Part shown: positions 1 through 53,129 of the stretch, piece after piece
Layout: every line of letters starts with the position of its first letter
Position numbering within the stretch: position 1 is the first letter of the stretch
Source of the DNA: a bacterium HR10
GTDB taxonomy: Bacteria > Acidobacteriota > Blastocatellia > HR10
DNA: 64,000 nt
Direction of reading: 5' to 3'
Assembly (NCBI GenBank): GCA_002923315.1
Contig: BEHM01000003.1
Coordinates: 34,029-98,028 of the forward strand
Program-made: the position numbers and the translations under genes
The notes under the pieces: model-generated
What the model was told of the DNA's origin: nothing
What the model saw: only the letters and a program-made list of their open reading frames with translations
Databases searched by the model: none

Positions 1-413
1 TCGCGATCGGCCACATCGCCCATCCGATGCATGAAGGCGACGCGCGCCACGGCATCTTCCGGACGCATGAAGCCCTGATCATATTCGGCCACCGGCAGCG
101 GGCGCTCCTCGGTCAACTCGCGAAAGCGACGCCACCACGCTTCGGGGAGACGAATCCCCTTGCCCTCGCAAGCGGGACAGGCCCCGCCTTCGTCTTCCAC
201 TCCGGCCAGAGTTCGATTGGCCTCGCGTCCCCGTTCGGTCAGGCGAATCTCCGCCCACCGATCGCCCGACCGTTCGATCCACCCCTCAGCGTGAAGACGT
301 TCGAGAGTCTCCCGCAGTTCGCGAATCGAATAGGGCCAGCGGCTCAGGATGTCCCACAAGCTCCGCTGACCGTCTCGTAGGATGGTGAGGAGAATACTCC
401 CAGGCTTCTCCAT
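1..413 (-). CDS. bpsA: Branched-chain polyamine synthase A (N4-bis(aminopropyl)spermidine synthase), 5' part; runs off the window edge
   Basis: Not in the ORF track. Manual translation from ATG 413: MEKPGSILL...IRLTERG...CPACEGKG...FRELTEERPLPVAEYDQGFMRPEDAVARVAFMHRMGDV. This matches the BpsA pattern (winged-helix N-terminus, CxxCxG, RPxPxxxFDQ, VARVAxMHxxGD). It lies directly downstream of speD with a 70-nt overlap; alternative TTG start at 359. Confidence 0.85.
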   Translation of the reverse strand, partial: MEKPGSILLTILRDGQRSLWDILSRWPYSIRELRETLERLHAEGWIERSGDRWAEIRLTERGREANRTLAGVEDEGGACPACEGKGIRLPEAWWRRFRELTEERPLPVAEYDQGFMRPEDAVARVAFMHRMGDVADR

Positions 414-754
414 GACACGCCCCGATCAATGATCTTTCGATCCACCTCCACCGGAGCCAACTCCTTGCAGATCGCCTCGAACGCGCGCAGGGCTTGCTCT
501 TCGGAGCTGCAGCTGAAGATGTCCAGCGCGATGTAGGCCTCTTCCGGCCACGTGTGCACGCTCACATGCGACTCCGCCAGGAGGACGAAACCGGTGACGC
601 CGAAGGGATGAAACTGGTGGAAGGAACTGGCGAGGATCTTGAAATCGTGATCGCGGAGAATCTTCAGCAGGAGTGGCTCCAGATGTTCGACGCGGCTGAG
701 GGTTTGACGATTGACACCATACAGCTCACCGAGGATGTGAATGCCGATGGCCAT
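344..754 (-). CDS. speD: S-adenosylmethionine decarboxylase proenzyme (short SpeD/SpeH type)
   Basis: HQFHPFGVTGFVLLAESHVSVHTWPE and DIFSC motifs; E-S self-cleavage site in LAESH. Confidence 0.95.
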   Translation of the reverse strand: MAIGIHILGELYGVNRQTLSRVEHLEPLLLKILRDHDFKILASSFHQFHPFGVTGFVLLAESHVSVHTWPEEAYIALDIFSCSSEEQALRAFEAICKELAPVEVDRKIIDRGVSWRSLGVFSSPSYETVSGACGTS

Positions 755-760
755 GTTCCT

Positions 761-781
761 TCACCCTCCTCGAATCGGAAT
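761..781 (-). other. Candidate AUU-initiated uORF (I/M-P-I-R-G-G-stop) in the speD leader, in frame with speD
   Basis: Minus strand reads AAGGAGGTGATCACG ATT CCG ATT CGA GGA GGG TGA AGG AAC ATG(speD); AAGGAGG sits 8 nt before the ATT. Confidence 0.4.
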
Positions 782-784
782 CGT

Positions 785-866
785 GATCACCTCCTTCGTT
801 CAACCAACGAGAGGCGAACCCGAAACGTTCGGGTTCTCCTCCCTGCCGGCCACATGATTCGGCAAG
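785..866 (-). promoter_or_regulatory. Structured speD 5' UTR: three hairpins plus a 12-nt Shine-Dalgarno AAGGAGGTGATC (796-785)
   Basis: Stems CTTGCCG/CGGCAGG (866-842), GAACCCGAA/TTCGGGTTC (836-816) and TCGTT/AACGA (810-796). Confidence 0.6.
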
Positions 867-873
867 ACTGTTC

Positions 874-902
874 AATATAGCCACCGCAGGCAGGAAAATC
901 AA
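874..902 (-). promoter_or_regulatory. sigma70 promoter of speD-bpsA
   Basis: TTGATT-N17-TATATT. Confidence 0.7.
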
Positions 903-909
903 GGGCTTT

Positions 910-938
910 TTGCGGCGAGCGACTTTTTGTGGTATTCT
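910..938 (+). promoter_or_regulatory. sigma70 promoter of the FHA/kinase operon
   Basis: TTGCGG-N17-TATTCT with extended -10 TG; back-to-back with the speD promoter. Confidence 0.6.
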
Positions 939-975
939 GAGTCAAGATGCAATTCATGAGGAGGCGCGCGTCCGA

Positions 976-1560
976 ATGATCCACTGTCGCCGGTGCGGAA
1001 TGGAGAATCTGGAGGACGCGACCTATTGTGACGCCTGCGGGGCGAGCCTGGCGTCGGACGCCGAAGGCGGGCAGGCGACGCCTGCAGAAGAGGTGGCGGA
1101 TTCGCCGAAGCGGAGCTCTCGATCTCTCGGAGGCACGCCCGCGGAGAAGCCTGCGGCGGTCTCCCGGGCTGAAGGCACGGCACTTTCGGAGGCGCCGCCA
1201 GACCGCTCCCCTCCGGATCGTCGGCCACGAGCGAAGTTGGTGCTTGTGCGCGGCGGTCGTGTCGGCCGGGAATTCCCCATCTGGGAGTCGGAGGTGATGC
1301 TCGGACGGTGGGATGCCGAGCACGGGATCTTCCCCGAGATTGATCTGGATGAAGATGATCCCGAGGCCAAGGTCTCTCGCCGCCACGCGCGCATCTTCTA
1401 TCGGGAGGGGCAATTCTGGATCGAAGATCTGGGGAGCCTGAACGGGACGTTCGTCAATCGCGGGCCTCGGCTCCACCCGCATCAGCCCGTGCCGCTGCGG
1501 CACGGCGACGAGATCATCGTGGGGAAGACCTTCTTGCGATTTCTCATCGAGGGGCTATGA
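976..1560 (+). CDS. Zinc-ribbon + FHA domain protein
   Basis: CRRC..CDAC ribbon, low-complexity linker, FHA motifs GR..VSRRHARI..DLGSLNGTFVN; start moved to ATG 976 after GAGGAGG. Confidence 0.9.
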   Translation: MIHCRRCGMENLEDATYCDACGASLASDAEGGQATPAEEVADSPKRSSRSLGGTPAEKPAAVSRAEGTALSEAPPDRSPPDRRPRAKLVLVRGGRVGREFPIWESEVMLGRWDAEHGIFPEIDLDEDDPEAKVSRRHARIFYREGQFWIEDLGSLNGTFVNRGPRLHPHQPVPLRHGDEIIVGKTFLRFLIEGL

Positions 1561-3065
1561 AGTTCTGCGCGCGGTGCGGATCGCCCGTTCACCCAGAGGA
1601 TCTCTTTTGCGGCGAATGTGGGGCGCGCCAGGTCTTCTCCGGATCATTCGTGAGGGGCGAGAGGCCGGGAGCCTTCGCCCCGCTCGCGGAGTTGCCTCCT
1701 GGCGCTGTCCTGCGCGAGCGCTATGAGATCGTGCGGCGGGTCGGGGGAGGGGGCATGGGGAATGTCTATCAAGCCCGTGACCGCCACCTGAATGGCGCCG
1801 TGCGCGCCGTCAAGGAGATGATCGAGATGTTCTCCGATCCCGCGCTTCGGGAGAAAGCCATCCTCGATTTCCAGCGCGAGGCGCGGCTGCTGGCCAGCCT
1901 CCGCCATCCCTCGATCCCGATCATCTACGACCATTTCGTCGAAGGGGGGCGGTACTATCTCGTCATGGAGTTCATCTCGGGGGGGGATCTGGCCACGCGG
2001 TTGCAGTTGGTCGGCGGGCGGTTCGATGAGCTGACCGTCACGCTATGGGCCATCCAGATCTGCGATGTGCTCGATTACCTGCACACGCGGCAGCCGCCGA
2101 TCATCTATCGGGACCTGAAGCCGGCCAACATCATGATTGATCCCGGGGCCAATCGCGTCGTGCTCATTGATTTCGGAATCGCGCGCGTCGTGGCCCCTCA
2201 GGAGAAGGGGGTGACGGCCGTCGGCACGATGGGATATGCGCCGCCAGAGTTGTTCTCCGGACAGGTCGAGCCGCGCTCGGACATTTATTCGCTGGGCGCT
2301 ACGATGTTTCATCTGCTGACGGGGGTGGACCCGCGCGATCAACCGCTGCTGATCTTCGACTTCACGCGGAATCCGACGCCGCGCCAGTATCATCCTGAGC
2401 TCACGCCGCAGATGGAGCGCCTCCTCATGCGCGCCGTCGCCTATGCGCCGGAGGATCGGTTCGCCTCGGCGCGCGAGATGAAGAGCGCGCTGGAAGAGCA
2501 TCTGGCTCTCCTGCGCGAGCAGTGCGGCGATCGTCTGGAGCACGCCTATCGCATGGCGTTCGGCGATCTCGTCCGCCGCGCGGGGTCGGAGGTCGCGCCT
2601 CGCTTGGACGTGGCCGTGGGAATGGTCTACTGCAGCTATTGTGGGGTGAGCATCGGAGCGGACGATCTCTATTGCGCATACTGCGGCGCGCGCCAACCGA
2701 TCGAAGTCGAGCCCATGCGGGCGAGCGCCTATCTGTTCGTCTTCGATCCGCGCTCGGGGGAGGTGCGGGCGACGCAACCCCTGCTCAAGGAGTCGAATCT
2801 CATCGGTCGCGCCGACCCGATCTCCGGCATCTTCCCGGATGTGGATTTGTCCCCATACGATCCGGGGGCGACGGTCTCGCGCCGGCATGCGCGCATCTGG
2901 CGGGCGGAAGGGCGATATTGGATCGAGGACCTGGCGAGCGTCAACGGGACGCTCGTCAACGGTCGTCGGTTGCTCCCGCCGCGAACCCCACAGGCGCTCC
3001 GCGATGGAGATCGTGTGCAGATCGGCGAGGTGTCCCTGCTTTTCCGGCATGAGGGCGAATGGTGA
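1557..3065 (+). CDS. Hanks-type Ser/Thr kinase: zinc ribbon - kinase - zinc ribbon - FHA
   Basis: GGGGMGNVY, AVKE, YRDLKPAN, DFG, GTMGYAPPE; CARC..CGEC and CSYC..CAYC; C-terminal FHA (GR..SRRHAR..SVNGT). Confidence 0.95.
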   Translation: MKFCARCGSPVHPEDLFCGECGARQVFSGSFVRGERPGAFAPLAELPPGAVLRERYEIVRRVGGGGMGNVYQARDRHLNGAVRAVKEMIEMFSDPALREKAILDFQREARLLASLRHPSIPIIYDHFVEGGRYYLVMEFISGGDLATRLQLVGGRFDELTVTLWAIQICDVLDYLHTRQPPIIYRDLKPANIMIDPGANRVVLIDFGIARVVAPQEKGVTAVGTMGYAPPELFSGQVEPRSDIYSLGATMFHLLTGVDPRDQPLLIFDFTRNPTPRQYHPELTPQMERLLMRAVAYAPEDRFASAREMKSALEEHLALLREQCGDRLEHAYRMAFGDLVRRAGSEVAPRLDVAVGMVYCSYCGVSIGADDLYCAYCGARQPIEVEPMRASAYLFVFDPRSGEVRATQPLLKESNLIGRADPISGIFPDVDLSPYDPGATVSRRHARIWRAEGRYWIEDLASVNGTLVNGRRLLPPRTPQALRDGDRVQIGEVSLLFRHEGEW

Positions 3066-3721
3066 CGAGTCATTGTCCGCGATGTCACATGCCGCAGCGT
3101 CCGGGAGCGAGGTTCTGCCGAGCCTGTGGCGCGCCGCTGGTGACGGCGGCGTACGCCGTCGAATCTCCCGCTGACTCAGCGAGTGGCGCTCTTGATCTTC
3201 GAGAGCGCGCGATCACGATGCCGTGGCAGGAGGCGGAGCCCCCTCCTCGCGTGAGCAGGCGCGTCCCGGCACCTCTGGTGGTCCGACTCGTGGCGTTCTT
3301 TCTCGACCTGATGGTGCTGCTGGCAGCGATGGGGGTGACCGTCATGGGGGCCGTCGCCCTTCGAGGGCGGCTCCTGCTGGCGGAGCTGGCGATGTGGAGT
3401 GCGCTCGCGGCGTGCTTGGTTTTGCTGGTGAACCACTTTATACTCTGCAGCGTGCGCGGGCAATCGGTGGGGATGGCGCTTGTGGGGATCCAGATCGTGC
3501 GCGCCGATGGTCGGCCCCTCTCGTGGGGACGTTCGCTCTTGCGGCATACACTCGGCTACGGGCTGGCGGCGCTCCCGCTCGGACTGGGATTCCTCTGGAT
3601 GCTCATGGATGGGCAGGGGCGAGGATGGCATGATTTGCTGAGTGGGACGCGGGTCGTCACGGAGGCCGATGATGGTGAAGCTCAAGGTGTACTCACCGGG
3701 TCGAGCGCCGACCGTCGTTGA
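3059..3721 (+). CDS. Zinc-ribbon + RDD family membrane protein
   Basis: CPRC..CRAC; RLVAFFLD, GQSVG, GRGWHDLLSGTRVV RDD motifs. Confidence 0.9.
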   Translation: MVTSHCPRCHMPQRPGARFCRACGAPLVTAAYAVESPADSASGALDLRERAITMPWQEAEPPPRVSRRVPAPLVVRLVAFFLDLMVLLAAMGVTVMGAVALRGRLLLAELAMWSALAACLVLLVNHFILCSVRGQSVGMALVGIQIVRADGRPLSWGRSLLRHTLGYGLAALPLGLGFLWMLMDGQGRGWHDLLSGTRVVTEADDGEAQGVLTGSSADRR

Positions 3722-5405
3722 GATCCGGAAGCGGCGGATCGTCATCGGGCGTTCGGTGCGCAGCGATCTCTGTGTGGACGATCCCTTCACCTCGCGCGTG
3801 CATGCGGAGCTGCGCGAGGAGGGGAAGACGTGGTGGGTGACGGACCTGGGGAGTGCCAACGGCACATATCTGAACGGCGTCCGCATTCGTGGGACGGTCG
3901 CGGTCGCTGTCGGCGATCGCCTTCAGGTGGGGGAGACGATACTGGAGCTCCTCCCTCATGCTGAGCCGATTTCTGTCGCAGAGGTCCCGATGGACGAACT
4001 GGGGACCGGCGACGTGATCGTCGCGCGCCCGGAGACGCTGACCTCGACATCATCCGCGGAGCGCCCGCCGCTGGCTCCTGAGATCGTCTCTCTGCTCGAT
4101 GCGGCGCGTTCGGTCACTGTGCCCGGGTCGCCGCCTGAGGTCGAGCGGAGCAAACGATTGCTGGCCGTGCTCACTCAGGTCGGCATCGCCTTGCTCTCCC
4201 CCCTCTCGCTCGATGAGGTGCTCCGGCAGATCGTCGGTTTGGTGCTGGAGGCGGTCCCCGCCGAGCGCGTGTTCCTCTTGCTGCGAGGCGCTCAGGGAGA
4301 ATGGTCGTGCAAGATCGCGGGCTATCGCGGACAGGAGCCGTCGGTGGTCGAGCAGGTCGTGCGCATCAGCCGCTCAGTCCTGGAGGAGGTCGTCGAGCGC
4401 GGACGCTCGGTGCTCACCTTCGATGCGCAGACGGACGAGCGCTTCCGTCAGCGCGATTCGATTCTGCTGAGCGGCATCCGTTCGATCATGGCTGTTCCCC
4501 TGCTGGGGAGTCGGCAGGAGACGCCGTCGCCGGTCGTGGGAATGATCTACGTGGACAATCCGATGAGTGCGGGCGCGTTCACTGAAGAAGACCTGCAGCT
4601 GCTCACGACCGTGGCATCGGTCGCGGCGATCAAGATCGAGAATGCGCTGCTGCTGGAGCAGCGCCTGGAGAACGAGCGGATCAAGCACCAATTGGCTCAA
4701 GCGCGCGATCTGCAATTTCAACTGCTGCCGGTCGCCCCGCCCGAGGTCGAGGGATACGATCTGGCGGGCATCAGCTTCCCCTGCTACGAAGTCGGTGGGG
4801 ACTACTTCGACTTCATTCGCGGGCCCGAAGGGACGTTGCTGCTCGCCCTGGGCGATGTGTGCGGCAAGGGGATGGATGCGGCGATGCTCATGTCGGCGCT
4901 GCATGCGAGCGTGCGCGCTCAGGCGCGCTCGGCGGCCTCAGTCGCCGAGATGATGGCGGCCGTCAATCGCTATCTCTGCGAGACGACGGCTCCGAATAAG
5001 TTCGCGACGCTCTGGCTCGCCCGATTGAATCCGCGCGCGCACGAGTTGAGCTACACCAACGCCGGACATAATCCGCCGTTGCTCATGCGCGCGGACGGGT
5101 CGGTGGAGTTTTTGGAGAGGGGGGGGATTCCCGTCGGTATCCTGGAGGAGGCGGTGTACGAGGAGCAGGGCCTCCGGTTGGAGCCGGGCGACGTGCTCGT
5201 CCTCTTCAGCGATGGGATCAGCGAGAGCATGAATGAGCGGGGGGAGGAATTCGGCGTCGCGCGCTTGGTGGAGGTCGTGCGGCGCTCTCGCGAGCAGCGC
5301 GCCGCCGCCCTGCGCGATCGTATCGAGGAGGCCCTCAGCCACTTCCTCGGGAAGGCCCGCCCGGCCGATGATATGACGCTGCTCATCGTGAAACGGACGG
5401 CGTGA
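3669..5405 (+). CDS. FHA-GAF-SpoIIE/PP2C Ser/Thr phosphatase
   Basis: FHA (GRS..SRVHAE..SANGT), GAF (RSIMAVPL..IYVDN), PP2C motifs VGGDYFD, DVCGKG, FSDG, DDMT. Confidence 0.92.
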   Translation: MMVKLKVYSPGRAPTVVEIRKRRIVIGRSVRSDLCVDDPFTSRVHAELREEGKTWWVTDLGSANGTYLNGVRIRGTVAVAVGDRLQVGETILELLPHAEPISVAEVPMDELGTGDVIVARPETLTSTSSAERPPLAPEIVSLLDAARSVTVPGSPPEVERSKRLLAVLTQVGIALLSPLSLDEVLRQIVGLVLEAVPAERVFLLLRGAQGEWSCKIAGYRGQEPSVVEQVVRISRSVLEEVVERGRSVLTFDAQTDERFRQRDSILLSGIRSIMAVPLLGSRQETPSPVVGMIYVDNPMSAGAFTEEDLQLLTTVASVAAIKIENALLLEQRLENERIKHQLAQARDLQFQLLPVAPPEVEGYDLAGISFPCYEVGGDYFDFIRGPEGTLLLALGDVCGKGMDAAMLMSALHASVRAQARSAASVAEMMAAVNRYLCETTAPNKFATLWLARLNPRAHELSYTNAGHNPPLLMRADGSVEFLERGGIPVGILEEAVYEEQGLRLEPGDVLVLFSDGISESMNERGEEFGVARLVEVVRRSREQRAAALRDRIEEALSHFLGKARPADDMTLLIVKRTA

Positions 5406-50678: not shown

Positions 50679-51308
50679 ATGAGGAGAACATCGGCTTTTT
50701 ACTTCGGGATCGTGAGCATCGGGGTGCTGCTTGCTCTCGCGCTTTCGAGTGGGGGGCAGCAGCGGTCCGCCACATCGTCGGCGCGGCGTGCGCCCGGCCT
50801 GTATGCCATCTTCGAGACGAGCATGGGGCGGATCGTGTGTCGGCTCTTCGAGCAGGAGGCGCCCAAGGCCGTCGCCAATTTCGTGGGGTTGGCGGAAGGG
50901 ACGAAGGAGCACATCTCGCCATGGACCGGGCGGAAGATCAAGAAGCGGTTTTACGATGGCTTGATGTTCCATCGCGTCATCCCGAATTTCATCATTCAAT
51001 CGGGGGATCCGACGGCGACCGGTCGGTATACGCCGGGCTATACGTTCGAGGATGAGATTCGTCCGAATTTGAAGTTCGACAAGCCGGGGCGTTTGGCGAT
51101 GGCCAATCGCGGGCCGAACACCAATGGGAGTCAATTCTTCATCACCGTCGCGCCGGCGCCGCATCTGAACGGCAAGCACACGATCTTCGGCGAAGTCGTC
51201 GAGGGGTTGGACGTCGCTCGGCGGATCGCCAACGTCCCGCGCGACGCGACGGACAAGCCGATCCGCCCTGTGCTCATTCAAAGGGTGATCATCGAGCGGG
51301 TGAAGTGA
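50679..51308 (+). CDS. Cyclophilin-type peptidyl-prolyl isomerase, exported
   Basis: FYDGLMFHRVIPNF, AMANRGPNTNGSQFFIT, HTIFGEV; signal peptide. Confidence 0.95.
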   Translation: MRRTSAFYFGIVSIGVLLALALSSGGQQRSATSSARRAPGLYAIFETSMGRIVCRLFEQEAPKAVANFVGLAEGTKEHISPWTGRKIKKRFYDGLMFHRVIPNFIIQSGDPTATGRYTPGYTFEDEIRPNLKFDKPGRLAMANRGPNTNGSQFFITVAPAPHLNGKHTIFGEVVEGLDVARRIANVPRDATDKPIRPVLIQRVIIERVK

Positions 51309-51380
51309 GCGCGCATTGCCCGAAAGGAGGTGAGCAGGCGGCGCGCGACTCTCTATGGGGAGCGCGCCCGCAGTGAGCGT

Positions 51381-53129
51381 ATGCGATTCGCCAGACTCGT
51401 GGACTATTTCGAGCGGCTGGAGGCGACGACCAAGCGGCTGGAGATGTTCGACATCTTGAGCGACTTGTTTCGCGACGTGGAGGCGGAGGAGATCGCCCCG
51501 GTCGTCTATTTGCTGGAAGAGCAGTTAGCGCCGCCTTTTCGCGGCATTGAGATCGGGATGGCCGAGAAGCTCGTGCTGCGCGCCATCGCGAAGGCCACGG
51601 GGGTCGAGGAAGGGCGCGTGACGACGCTGTACAAGAAGTTGGGCGATCCCGGGCTGGTCGTCGAGCGGCTGCTTGAACAGAAGAAGGAGGCGTCCGCGCG
51701 CGGGAAGCTCACCGTCCTCGCCGTCTACACGCGCTTGATGGAGATCGCGGAGCAAACGGGTGAAGGGAGCGTCGAGCGCAAGATACAGGGGCTGAGCGAC
51801 CTGTTGGCGGAAGCCGGGCCGAAGGAGGCGCGCTATATCGCGCGGTTCGTCATGGGACGATTGCGCTTGGGGATCGGTGATCCCACGATCTTGGATGCGC
51901 TCTCGAAGGCGGTGGCGGGAGATCGGAGCTTGAGGCCAGAGTTGGAGCGGGCCTACAACCTCTGTTCCGATCTCGGATTGGTCGCGCGGACGCTTCGAGA
52001 ACAGGGTCTGGATGGGATTCGCGCCTTTCGGGTCCGCGTCGGCCATCCGATTCGTATGGCTCTGGCCGAGCGGTTGCCCACGGCTGAGGAGATCATCCGG
52101 CGGCTCGGGCGGTGTGCCGTCGAGGTGAAGATTGATGGATTTCGCTGTCAGGTGCACAAGCAGGGGAATACGGTGGAGATCTTCTCTCGAAATCTCGAGC
52201 GCACGACGCCGATGTTCCCGGACATCGTCGAGGGGGTGCGGCAACAGGTGGCCGCGCGCGAGGCGATTTTCGAGGGCGAGGCCGTCGCCGTGAACGAGGA
52301 GACGGGCGAGATCTATCCCTTCCAGGTCACCGTTCAGCGCAAGCGCAAGCATGGGGTCGCAGAGATGGCGCGCGAATATCCGCTGGTGCTGTACGCCTTC
52401 GATCTGCTCTATAGCGATGGCGTGGACTATACGCCGGAGCCGTATGAGCGGCGACGAGAGGCGCTGGAGCGAATGATCCGCCCGGGCGATCGGCTCAAGC
52501 TTGCCGAGATGATCATCACTGATGATCCTAAGGTCGTGGAGCGGTTCTTCGAGGAGAGCATCGAGCGCGGGTTGGAGGGCATCGTCGCCAAGCGGCTCGA
52601 CGCGCCGTATCAAGCGGGCGCACGTGGCTTCCATTGGATCAAGCTCAAGCGCTCGTACAAGGGCGAGCTGAGCGATACGCTCGATGTCGTGCTGATCGGC
52701 TATTTCCACGGACGCGGGTCGCGGGCGCGACTGGGCATCGGGGCGTTGCTCGGAGCTGTGTACGATGAGGAGAGTGACACGTTCAAGACGATCGCGAAGA
52801 TCGGGAGCGGATTGAGCGAGGAGGAATGGGTGCGGATTCGCGAGCTGCTCGATCGCTCGCGCGTGTCGCATCGTCCCGCGCGCGTGGATTCGCTCATTGA
52901 GCCCGACGTGTGGGTGGAACCCCGCTATGTCGTGACGGTGCTGGCGGATGAGATCACGAAGTCGCCGGTCCACACCTGCGGTAAGCGCGATGATGAGCCG
53001 GGTTATGCGTTGCGCTTTCCCCGCGTCGTCGGCTGGATTCGGGAGGACAAGCGGCCGGAGGATGCCAACACGGTGCGCGAGGTGCTGGAGATGTATGAGA
53101 TGCAGAAGCGGGTGAAGCTCGCCGGATGA
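51381..53129 (+). CDS. lig: ATP-dependent DNA ligase, archaeal/LigI-type with an N-terminal DNA-binding domain
   Basis: EVKIDGFR (motif I), IFSRNLE, EGIVAK, WIKLK, LRFPR. Confidence 0.93.
   Translation: MRFARLVDYFERLEATTKRLEMFDILSDLFRDVEAEEIAPVVYLLEEQLAPPFRGIEIGMAEKLVLRAIAKATGVEEGRVTTLYKKLGDPGLVVERLLEQKKEASARGKLTVLAVYTRLMEIAEQTGEGSVERKIQGLSDLLAEAGPKEARYIARFVMGRLRLGIGDPTILDALSKAVAGDRSLRPELERAYNLCSDLGLVARTLREQGLDGIRAFRVRVGHPIRMALAERLPTAEEIIRRLGRCAVEVKIDGFRCQVHKQGNTVEIFSRNLERTTPMFPDIVEGVRQQVAAREAIFEGEAVAVNEETGEIYPFQVTVQRKRKHGVAEMAREYPLVLYAFDLLYSDGVDYTPEPYERRREALERMIRPGDRLKLAEMIITDDPKVVERFFEESIERGLEGIVAKRLDAPYQAGARGFHWIKLKRSYKGELSDTLDVVLIGYFHGRGSRARLGIGALLGAVYDEESDTFKTIAKIGSGLSEEEWVRIRELLDRSRVSHRPARVDSLIEPDVWVEPRYVVTVLADEITKSPVHTCGKRDDEPGYALRFPRVVGWIREDKRPEDANTVREVLEMYEMQKRVKLAG

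Follow-up and report, generated by a model that had tools for sequence, protein, structure and literature searches.

Several polyamine genes are controlled at the level of translation by elements in their leaders, like the MAGDIS uORF of the eukaryotic S-adenosylmethionine decarboxylase (AdoMetDC) mRNA, the uORF of the antizyme-inhibitor mRNA and the bacterial SpeFL arrest peptide. The uORFs of polyamine genes depend on a conserved peptide and on a defined start and stop. Split ribosome-binding sites, which are bridged by a hairpin, are known from genes 38 and 25 of phage T4. Little is known about the control of the bacterial S-adenosylmethionine decarboxylase. In the literature searched (subscription journals were outside its scope), no leader element of a bacterial speD gene is described, nor is it described there how thermophiles control the synthesis of branched polyamines. 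In the review PMC12979288, neither "speD" nor "operon" is used in a regulatory context.

The STAB-SD of Bacillus thuringiensis cry3A (Agaisse and Lereclus 1996; Mathy et al. 2007; both via PMC4113751) is, in the summary given there, 9 nt long, adjoins the mature 5' end and lies ~117-125 nt from the AUG. Standby sites, like those of the MS2 coat, tisB and lpp mRNAs, are described as places at which a 30S subunit is loaded ahead of the true start, independently of initiator tRNA, before it relocates. For the lpp mRNA, the standby 30S is depicted directly behind the initiating ribosome (PMC5924895). The messages of the E. coli polyamine modulon (oppA, fis, rmf) are summarized in PMC7177335 as having an obscure or distant SD and a bulged hairpin at the initiation region. 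Their translation is stimulated at normal polyamine levels and inhibited by excess spermidine, according to the same summary (PMC7177335).

The leader described here belongs to a speD-bpsA operon and contains an SD without a start codon (SD1). Like the STAB-SD, as outlined in PMC4113751, SD1 is an SD-like sequence of a 5' UTR which would pair with the 16S 3' end, probably without directing initiation there, and its host has RNase J. However, SD1 offers 13 pairs, lies 30-37 nt from the AUG and downstream of a long hairpin, and occurs in the Acidobacteriota; stabilisation by SD1 is putative. The distance between SD1 and the AUG corresponds to about one ribosome footprint, which matches the picture drawn for lpp (PMC5924895). 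In contrast, the standby sites known from such accounts are unstructured and bound with the help of S1 and S2, whereas SD1 is a full SD complement. They also differ from speD in that a sequestration of the speD RBS is putative.

The speD-bpsA operon and its predicted promoter

The window, i.e. the whole stretch of DNA analysed (64,000 nt), contains the following features of the operon:

344..754, minus strand: speD, small S-adenosylmethionine decarboxylase, 136 aa (PF02675, E 7.4e-32)
3..413, minus strand: bpsA (branched-chain polyamine synthase), 5' part (PF01861 / BpsA_C match)
902..874, minus strand: promoter-like site, -35 TTGATT, 17 nt, -10 TATATT (sigma-70-like; 1 found vs 0.1 expected)

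The speD gene starts with ATG at 754..752 on the minus strand, directly preceded by AGGAAC. The ATG of bpsA at position 413 lies 70 nt within speD in another frame (344-413), and the same overlap was found in 10 of 10 related genomes. Residues 113-136 of SpeD, which form its tail past the Pfam domain, are conserved, and a strong SD of its own is missing for bpsA. Because of these three features, bpsA appears to be coupled to the translation of speD, which suggests that bpsA translation depends on ribosomes finishing speD.

The sigma-70-like site predicts a transcript start at ~867 and therefore a speD leader of ~113 nt, in good agreement with the 5' UTR of ~110 nt that a sequence-only reading of the window had proposed. 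The promoter boxes CTTGATTT and TATA(T/G)T were present in all 12 orthologous upstream regions. A metatranscriptome contig of 258 nt from a relative with ~90% identity spans window 546..803 without a break, including the 5' part of speD, the proximal SD (SD2) and SD1. These RNA data come from one run of one study in the form of assembled contigs, and the library may contain DNA, so that transcription is unproven. The contig ends at 803, 7 nt ahead of AAGGAGG, at a position which is not to be read as a transcript end, since contigs cannot show transcript ends. No contig covers 804..1000, which likewise carries no meaning.

Divergently from speD, window 910-5405 (plus strand) is occupied by a series of ORFs that combine a zinc ribbon at the N-terminus with an FHA-type C-terminus. 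For the ORF 910-1560 (plus strand), FHA and Zn ribbon were found in the profile scan. The ORFs that follow them on the plus strand are, by the look of their translation, kinase-like (1557-3065) and PP2C/SpoIIE-like (3642-5405).

Conservation of SD1 in orthologous speD leaders

For comparison, 61 related genomes were searched, and close SpeD orthologues (61-100% identity) were found in 10 genomes from three genera of one order. A metagenome scan added two contigs (L053 and L054) with 90-91% identity, which gives a total of 12 leaders. A genome collection returned only the same 7 close loci and no further orthologues. The leader in the window contains the following features:

801..852, minus strand: P1, long composite hairpin (MFE fold and consensus fold of 9 genus-level leaders)
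784..797, minus strand: SD1, GAAGGAGGTGATCA, 14-mer that complements the 16S 3' tail and has no start codon, conserved core of the leader
761..786, minus strand: small bulged hairpin UCAC-GA-UUCC / GGAG-G-GUGA (MFE fold and consensus fold of 9 genus-level leaders)
761..781, minus strand: mini-ORF ATT CCG ATT CGA GGA GGG TGA, present here, not conserved
761..771, minus strand: SD2, proximal SD, GAGGAGGGTGA, GGAGG ending 10 nt before the AUG

The 12-mer AAGGAGGTGATC (796..785, minus strand) lies inside SD1. The 16S gene of the same genome ends with ...GGATCACCTCCTTTCT, and the match of SD1 therefore comprises 12 of 12 Watson-Crick pairs and one G.U, i.e. 13 pairs. The complementarity of 12 nt to the 16S 3' end, which had been read from the window before, is thus borne out by the organism's own 16S tail. 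For the SD1:16S duplex, a free energy of -23.3 kcal/mol was calculated at 37 C and of -14.4 kcal/mol at 60 C.

The 14-mer is intact in 11 of the 12 orthologous speD leaders, including those of all three genera; L004 reads ...GATAG. It is the longest word common to the leaders of the three genera, which are otherwise unalignable. The next longest common word has 6 nt, and 2000 shuffles gave a maximum of 8 nt; the match thus exceeds what chance would give. From the GGAGG of SD1 to the speD AUG, 30-37 nt were counted in all orthologous leaders, whereas the distance between SD1 and the predicted transcript start is variable (~59 to 108 nt). As only three deep lineages are represented, the constant spacing between SD1 and AUG may be due to inheritance instead of constraint. 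ATG, GTG or TTG at a spacing of 4-12 after SD1 was found in none of the 11 aligned rows, which confirms the earlier remark that no AUG stands at usable spacing.

The conserved block coincides almost exactly with the segment capable of pairing to the organism's own 16S tail. Conservation includes the G and A that flank this segment within the 14-mer, although the A cannot pair with 16S. The comparison supports the view that the speD leader is genuine and that its near-full SD is a real element under selection, with ribosome loading as the simplest reading. Judged by its sequence, the simplest candidate for the ligand of SD1 would be the 16S tail, with 30S docking without initiation, and SD1 more likely docks ribosomes than encodes a mini-peptide.

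Predicted folding of the leader and accessibility of SD1 and SD2

The leader folds better than its shuffled versions (MFE z-score -2.82). Three hairpins had been assigned to it by the sequence-only reading, which is only loosely right: one long composite hairpin, P1, and a small hairpin are seen. The latter, TCAC-TTCC/GGAG-GTGA, is part of the MFE fold and also of the consensus fold of nine leaders. The 5' arm of P1 is itself SD-like (GGGAGGAG) and pairs with CCUCUC. Among the nine genus-level leaders, three pairs of P1 are kept through changes on both sides, and the insertion in L053/L054 extends the tip of the hairpin. Analogous hairpins are predicted to precede SD1 in the other genera. An intrinsic terminator after the P1 hairpin was looked for and none was found. 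Pairing of SD1 with the pyrimidine arm of P1 was rejected by inspection; it would comprise at most 5 pairs and would not be competitive with P1.

The small hairpin is predicted in genus g1 only. Its 5' arm starts inside SD1, and the hairpin could cover the proximal SD. Its 6 predicted pairs show no double-sided changes, and it is broken in L004 and partly in L053/L054. In g1, it would bring SD1 to ~3+6 nt from the AUG, similar to the split ribosome-binding sites of phage T4. However, this bridge is not kept in all leaders: ~22 nt are left in L008, the stem has 4 pairs in L009/L010, and the outer stem is broken in L004.

SD2 is a degenerate copy of GGAGGTGA. Its duplex with 16S reaches -13.7 kcal/mol at 37 C in this genus and -9.5 to -11.6 kcal/mol in the two others. 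The local fold energies of the proximal RBS are no lower than those of shuffled leaders, of which 25 to 163 of 200 fold as well. A helix between SD2 and speD codons 7-10 shows two cross-genus compensatory changes by eye and is used in the MFE fold of 6 of 11 rows, with energies that are not below those of shuffled controls. Pairing of the start codon with the 5' leader is notable in L008 only, for which 4 of 300 shuffles are as good; the other nine leaders gave 16 to 213 of 300. From these folding models, a closed speD RBS, which a standby mechanism would require, is possible.

For SD1, a moderate mean unpaired probability is predicted, which ranges from 0.28 to 0.62 at 37 C and from 0.40 to 0.75 at 60-70 C. 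In 9 of 10 leaders, SD1 is predicted to be more unpaired than the rest of the leader at 37, 60 and 70 C, the exception always being L009. The predicted pairing partners of SD1 differ between species, and a conserved partner was not found among the leaders compared.

SD1 as a proposed start-less docking site for 30S subunits

We favour the reading that SD1 is a start-less 30S docking site, which most likely feeds the speD start by standby or loading, and assign it a probability of about 0.45. SD1 (GAAGGAGGUGAUCA) would pair with almost the entire free 16S 3' tail (13 pairs) and thereby hold a 30S subunit. At 30-37 nt before the speD AUG, a distance of roughly one ribosome-length, the held 30S would sit immediately 3' of the stable hairpin P1 and immediately 5' of the weaker, foldable proximal RBS. 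It would wait on the message until SD2 and the AUG are free and then move ~25 nt to SD2. As a likely by-product, the docked 30S would block the 5'-to-3' decay by RNase J in a STAB-SD-like manner. Due to the overlap of the two genes and the missing strong SD of bpsA, any effect of SD1 would reach both speD and bpsA and thus set both enzymes.

Standby is favoured because the distance to the AUG is kept and not the distance to the 5' end. The proximal SD in this genus is already decent, so that the need for a loader is not obvious. The binding of 30S at SD1, which is judged by complementarity, the direction of its effect and any link to polyamines are inferred. If SD1 docks 30S subunits, start-less SDs of the STAB-SD kind would be extended beyond the Firmicutes, and to a position which obliges an interaction with initiation.

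Alternative readings of SD1

The main rival of this reading is a STAB-SD-like shield, which may coexist with loading. As a pure mRNA stabiliser, SD1 would park a 30S that stops RNase J, which would give a long-lived speD-bpsA message with no direct effect on initiation. We consider this unlikely. It would be in line with an SD in the 5' UTR that is start-less and fully complementary to 16S (12 Watson-Crick pairs and the G.U), and with the RNase J encoded in the genome (TIGR00649, 545.7 bits vs a cut-off of 400). The STAB-SD, as presented in PMC4113751, serves as precedent. However, in this account the latter is found close to the mature 5' end, with ~117-125 nt between it and the AUG, whereas SD1 is kept at 30-37 nt from the AUG and lies ~59-108 nt away from the predicted primary 5' end. 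Moreover, SD1 belongs to one operon only and not to the abundant messages of the genome.

A 30S that is fully accommodated on SD1 would cover SD2, so that the effect could be repressive and not activating; by geometry, such a clamp is equally allowed. As a decoy, the 30S bound by 13 pairs would cover SD2, leave slowly and throttle speD-bpsA, more so at low temperature or high polyamine. SD2 is located 19-26 nt past SD1, inside the mRNA channel of a docked 30S, and the SD1 duplex is ~10 kcal/mol stronger than that of SD2. The E. coli messages with a distant SD, whose translation polyamines stimulate and an excess of spermidine inhibits in the summary of PMC7177335, would fit a decoy as well. 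However, the case is made by geometry only, and by sequence a decoy is indistinguishable from standby. A naturally occurring decoy SD is not known to us, and we regard this role of SD1 as improbable.

The sequence-only reading had taken SD1 as the driver of initiation at an AUU codon. Translation of the resulting mini-uORF, or stalling on it, would be tuned by polyamines and would open or block the speD RBS or lead to reinitiation. The layout itself had been described exactly to the base. SD1 is followed by TGATCACG and then by ATT (781..779), 8 nt after AAGGAGG. This opens a frame of 6 sense codons which is in frame with speD, and its stop TGA (763..761) is separated from the speD ATG by 6 nt (AGGAAC). 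When SD-N8-ATT..GGA GGG TGA was aligned over the 12 leaders, the SD was kept in 11 of them, whereas ATT, peptide, frame and stop were not conserved.

The codon at +8 is ATT in 6 and ATC in 2 leaders, and AAT, AAA, ATA and ACA occur once each. The eight leaders with ATT or ATC, which would suit the AUU model, all belong to genus g1. However, the other four include both other genera. A stop in the +8 frame before the AUG, a further point in favour, is present in 9 of 12 leaders and missing in 3. The mini-ORF has a length of about 2, 3, 4, 6, 18 or >18 codons, in some cases running into speD, and the complete layout (in frame, stop 6 nt before the ATG) was found in only 3 of 12 leaders. Its frame relative to speD is variable. 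In L003, with 99% SpeD identity, a 1-nt insertion moves the frame and removes the stop, and so does a 1-nt deletion in L053/L054. A TGA six bases before the ATG occurs in 7 of 11 aligned rows regardless of the +8 frame. Going by its pairing, this "stop" is the end of the proximal SD (GGGTGA, GTGTGA), i.e. a part of the 16S complementarity of SD2.

As a working part of the leader, the mini-uORF does not survive this comparison. No conserved start and no conserved peptide, length or stop were found in the 12 leaders, in contrast to the uORFs of polyamine genes, and the frame varies as well. Since SD1 is kept and the start and peptide are not, selection appears to keep the SD without a start or a peptide. 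From the alignment, the AUU mini-uORF is more likely an accident of the spacer version of this genome, and a regulatory role for it seems very doubtful. It is a caution that a plausible mini-uORF of one genome dissolved after the alignment of twelve relatives.

Two other coding explanations were rejected. An upstream ATG ORF (855..787), which ends in a TGA inside SD1, is not conserved and has no SD; it comprises 8 sense codons in L001, L003, L005 and L006 and only ATG-TGA in L004 and L053. Readthrough of the TGA to a longer SpeD would not suit the relatives, in which the frames differ.

An apparent ATT start was observed in infA (IF1), located on contig C13 of G000 at 1126-1363 (= L135:127-364). 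The ATT is placed 9 nt after the GGAGG of AAGGAGGTGA. It is preceded, at 6 nt, by a TGA in the same frame and directly followed by the conserved N-terminal SKED/KKEE. The ATT is kept in 10 of 10 genomes from two families of the order (relatives L136-L145), whereas ATG is present in two outgroups. With an AUU start, IF1 would be subject to discrimination by IF3, as for infC. In the literature search, no publication on an infA AUU start was evident by title. Judged by this conservation, initiation at an ATT behind a strong SD appears to work in this order. As infA belongs to the same order as the speD leaders, a low level of initiation at 781 is conceivable within the genus, and weak ATT initiation may occur there in g1.

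A non-ribosomal role of the 14-mer, either as target of a protein or small RNA, as strand of an alternative helix (riboswitch or thermometer) or as DNA operator, is highly unlikely: the conserved flanking G and A with the unpairable A, the structured leader and the palindrome TGATCA would agree with such roles, but the conserved block is almost exactly the pairable 16S tail, a conserved partner strand is lacking, the covariance models of Rfam 15 gave no match over the leader (window 1..3000, E up to 10), CsrA was not found in the 87.5% complete genome, and the site lies 70-110 nt from the promoter.

Possible link between SD1 and polyamines

If SD1 docks 30S subunits, its occupancy could be connected to the products of the operon. 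Polyamines stabilise RNA duplexes and 30S complexes, and the long SD1 duplex could therefore respond to them. By analogy, a polyamine link of the SD1 leader is plausible. Like the messages of the polyamine modulon in E. coli, as these are summarized in PMC7177335, the speD leader has an SD far from the AUG and a bulged hairpin between both, which is predicted in g1 only. In contrast, the E. coli SDs are displaced by a few nt and have no second, proximal SD in this account, whereas SD1 is 30-37 nt away and SD2 is present. Because the distant-SD messages respond to polyamines in that summary (PMC7177335), the idea of a feedback attaches to the distal SD, and we infer that it would be better attached there than to the uORF.

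In the most far-reaching form of this idea, the leader would allow the ribosomes of a thermophile to sense whether polyamines are sufficient, with formation and release of the SD1:16S duplex being set by temperature and (branched) polyamines. When polyamines are scarce, SD1 would capture 30S and feed speD-bpsA. At high temperature, short ordinary SDs would then fail, with SD1 still capturing 30S. When polyamines are plentiful, the duplex would become too stable, the 30S would stay parked on top of SD2 and synthesis would fall. We consider such a sensor to be a long shot. If true, it would exert negative feedback on the synthesis of dcSAM and branched polyamines without a peptide, a protein or a metabolite-binding RNA. 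An SD1 that also responds to polyamines would represent a bacterial counterpart, by another mechanism, of the uORF control of eukaryotic AdoMetDC. The element is compact, its 14 invariant bases keep a fixed distance to the start, and the products of its operon act on ribosomes and RNA.

Start-less SDs in other speD loci and in the genome

A distal start-less SD was searched for before other speD genes. Among 107 loci with usable upstream sequence, it was found only in L053 and L054, which belong to the same clade. The sequence GGAGGTGATC was present in 0 of 132 speD loci outside the clade. In the genome (3.13 Mb, both strands), the 12-mer occurs five times, i.e. in the speD leader, in two ordinary SDs with the ATG 5 and 9 nt after GGAGG, in the 16S gene and once antisense to a gene. 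Start-less, non-coding complements of the 16S tail of at least 12 nt are SD1, a site in front of a ligase gene and a third site which lies between two genes in convergent orientation.

SD1 is gene-specific and deeply kept, and start-less SDs are not a genome-wide habit. No general habit is assumed because the start-less SD of the ligase leader is kept in only the 3 closest of the 8 genomes with the gene, the others having an ordinary SD beside the ATG, and because the copy on contig C37 is antisense to a coding region.

The strong start-less SD of the ligase leader, CGAAAGGAGGTGA, is located at window 51322-51333 (plus strand). It is flanked by a cyclophilin-like gene, whose stop is at 51308, and by the gene of an ATP-dependent DNA ligase, whose ATG is at 51381, and a GC-rich hairpin lies in between. 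On contig C37 of G000 (~8727, minus strand), AAGGAGGTGATC is directly followed by a perfect hairpin of 9 pairs, TCACCCCAT/ATGGGGTGA. The coding region on the opposite strand may encode a fumarylacetoacetate-hydrolase-like protein, as guessed from its translation.
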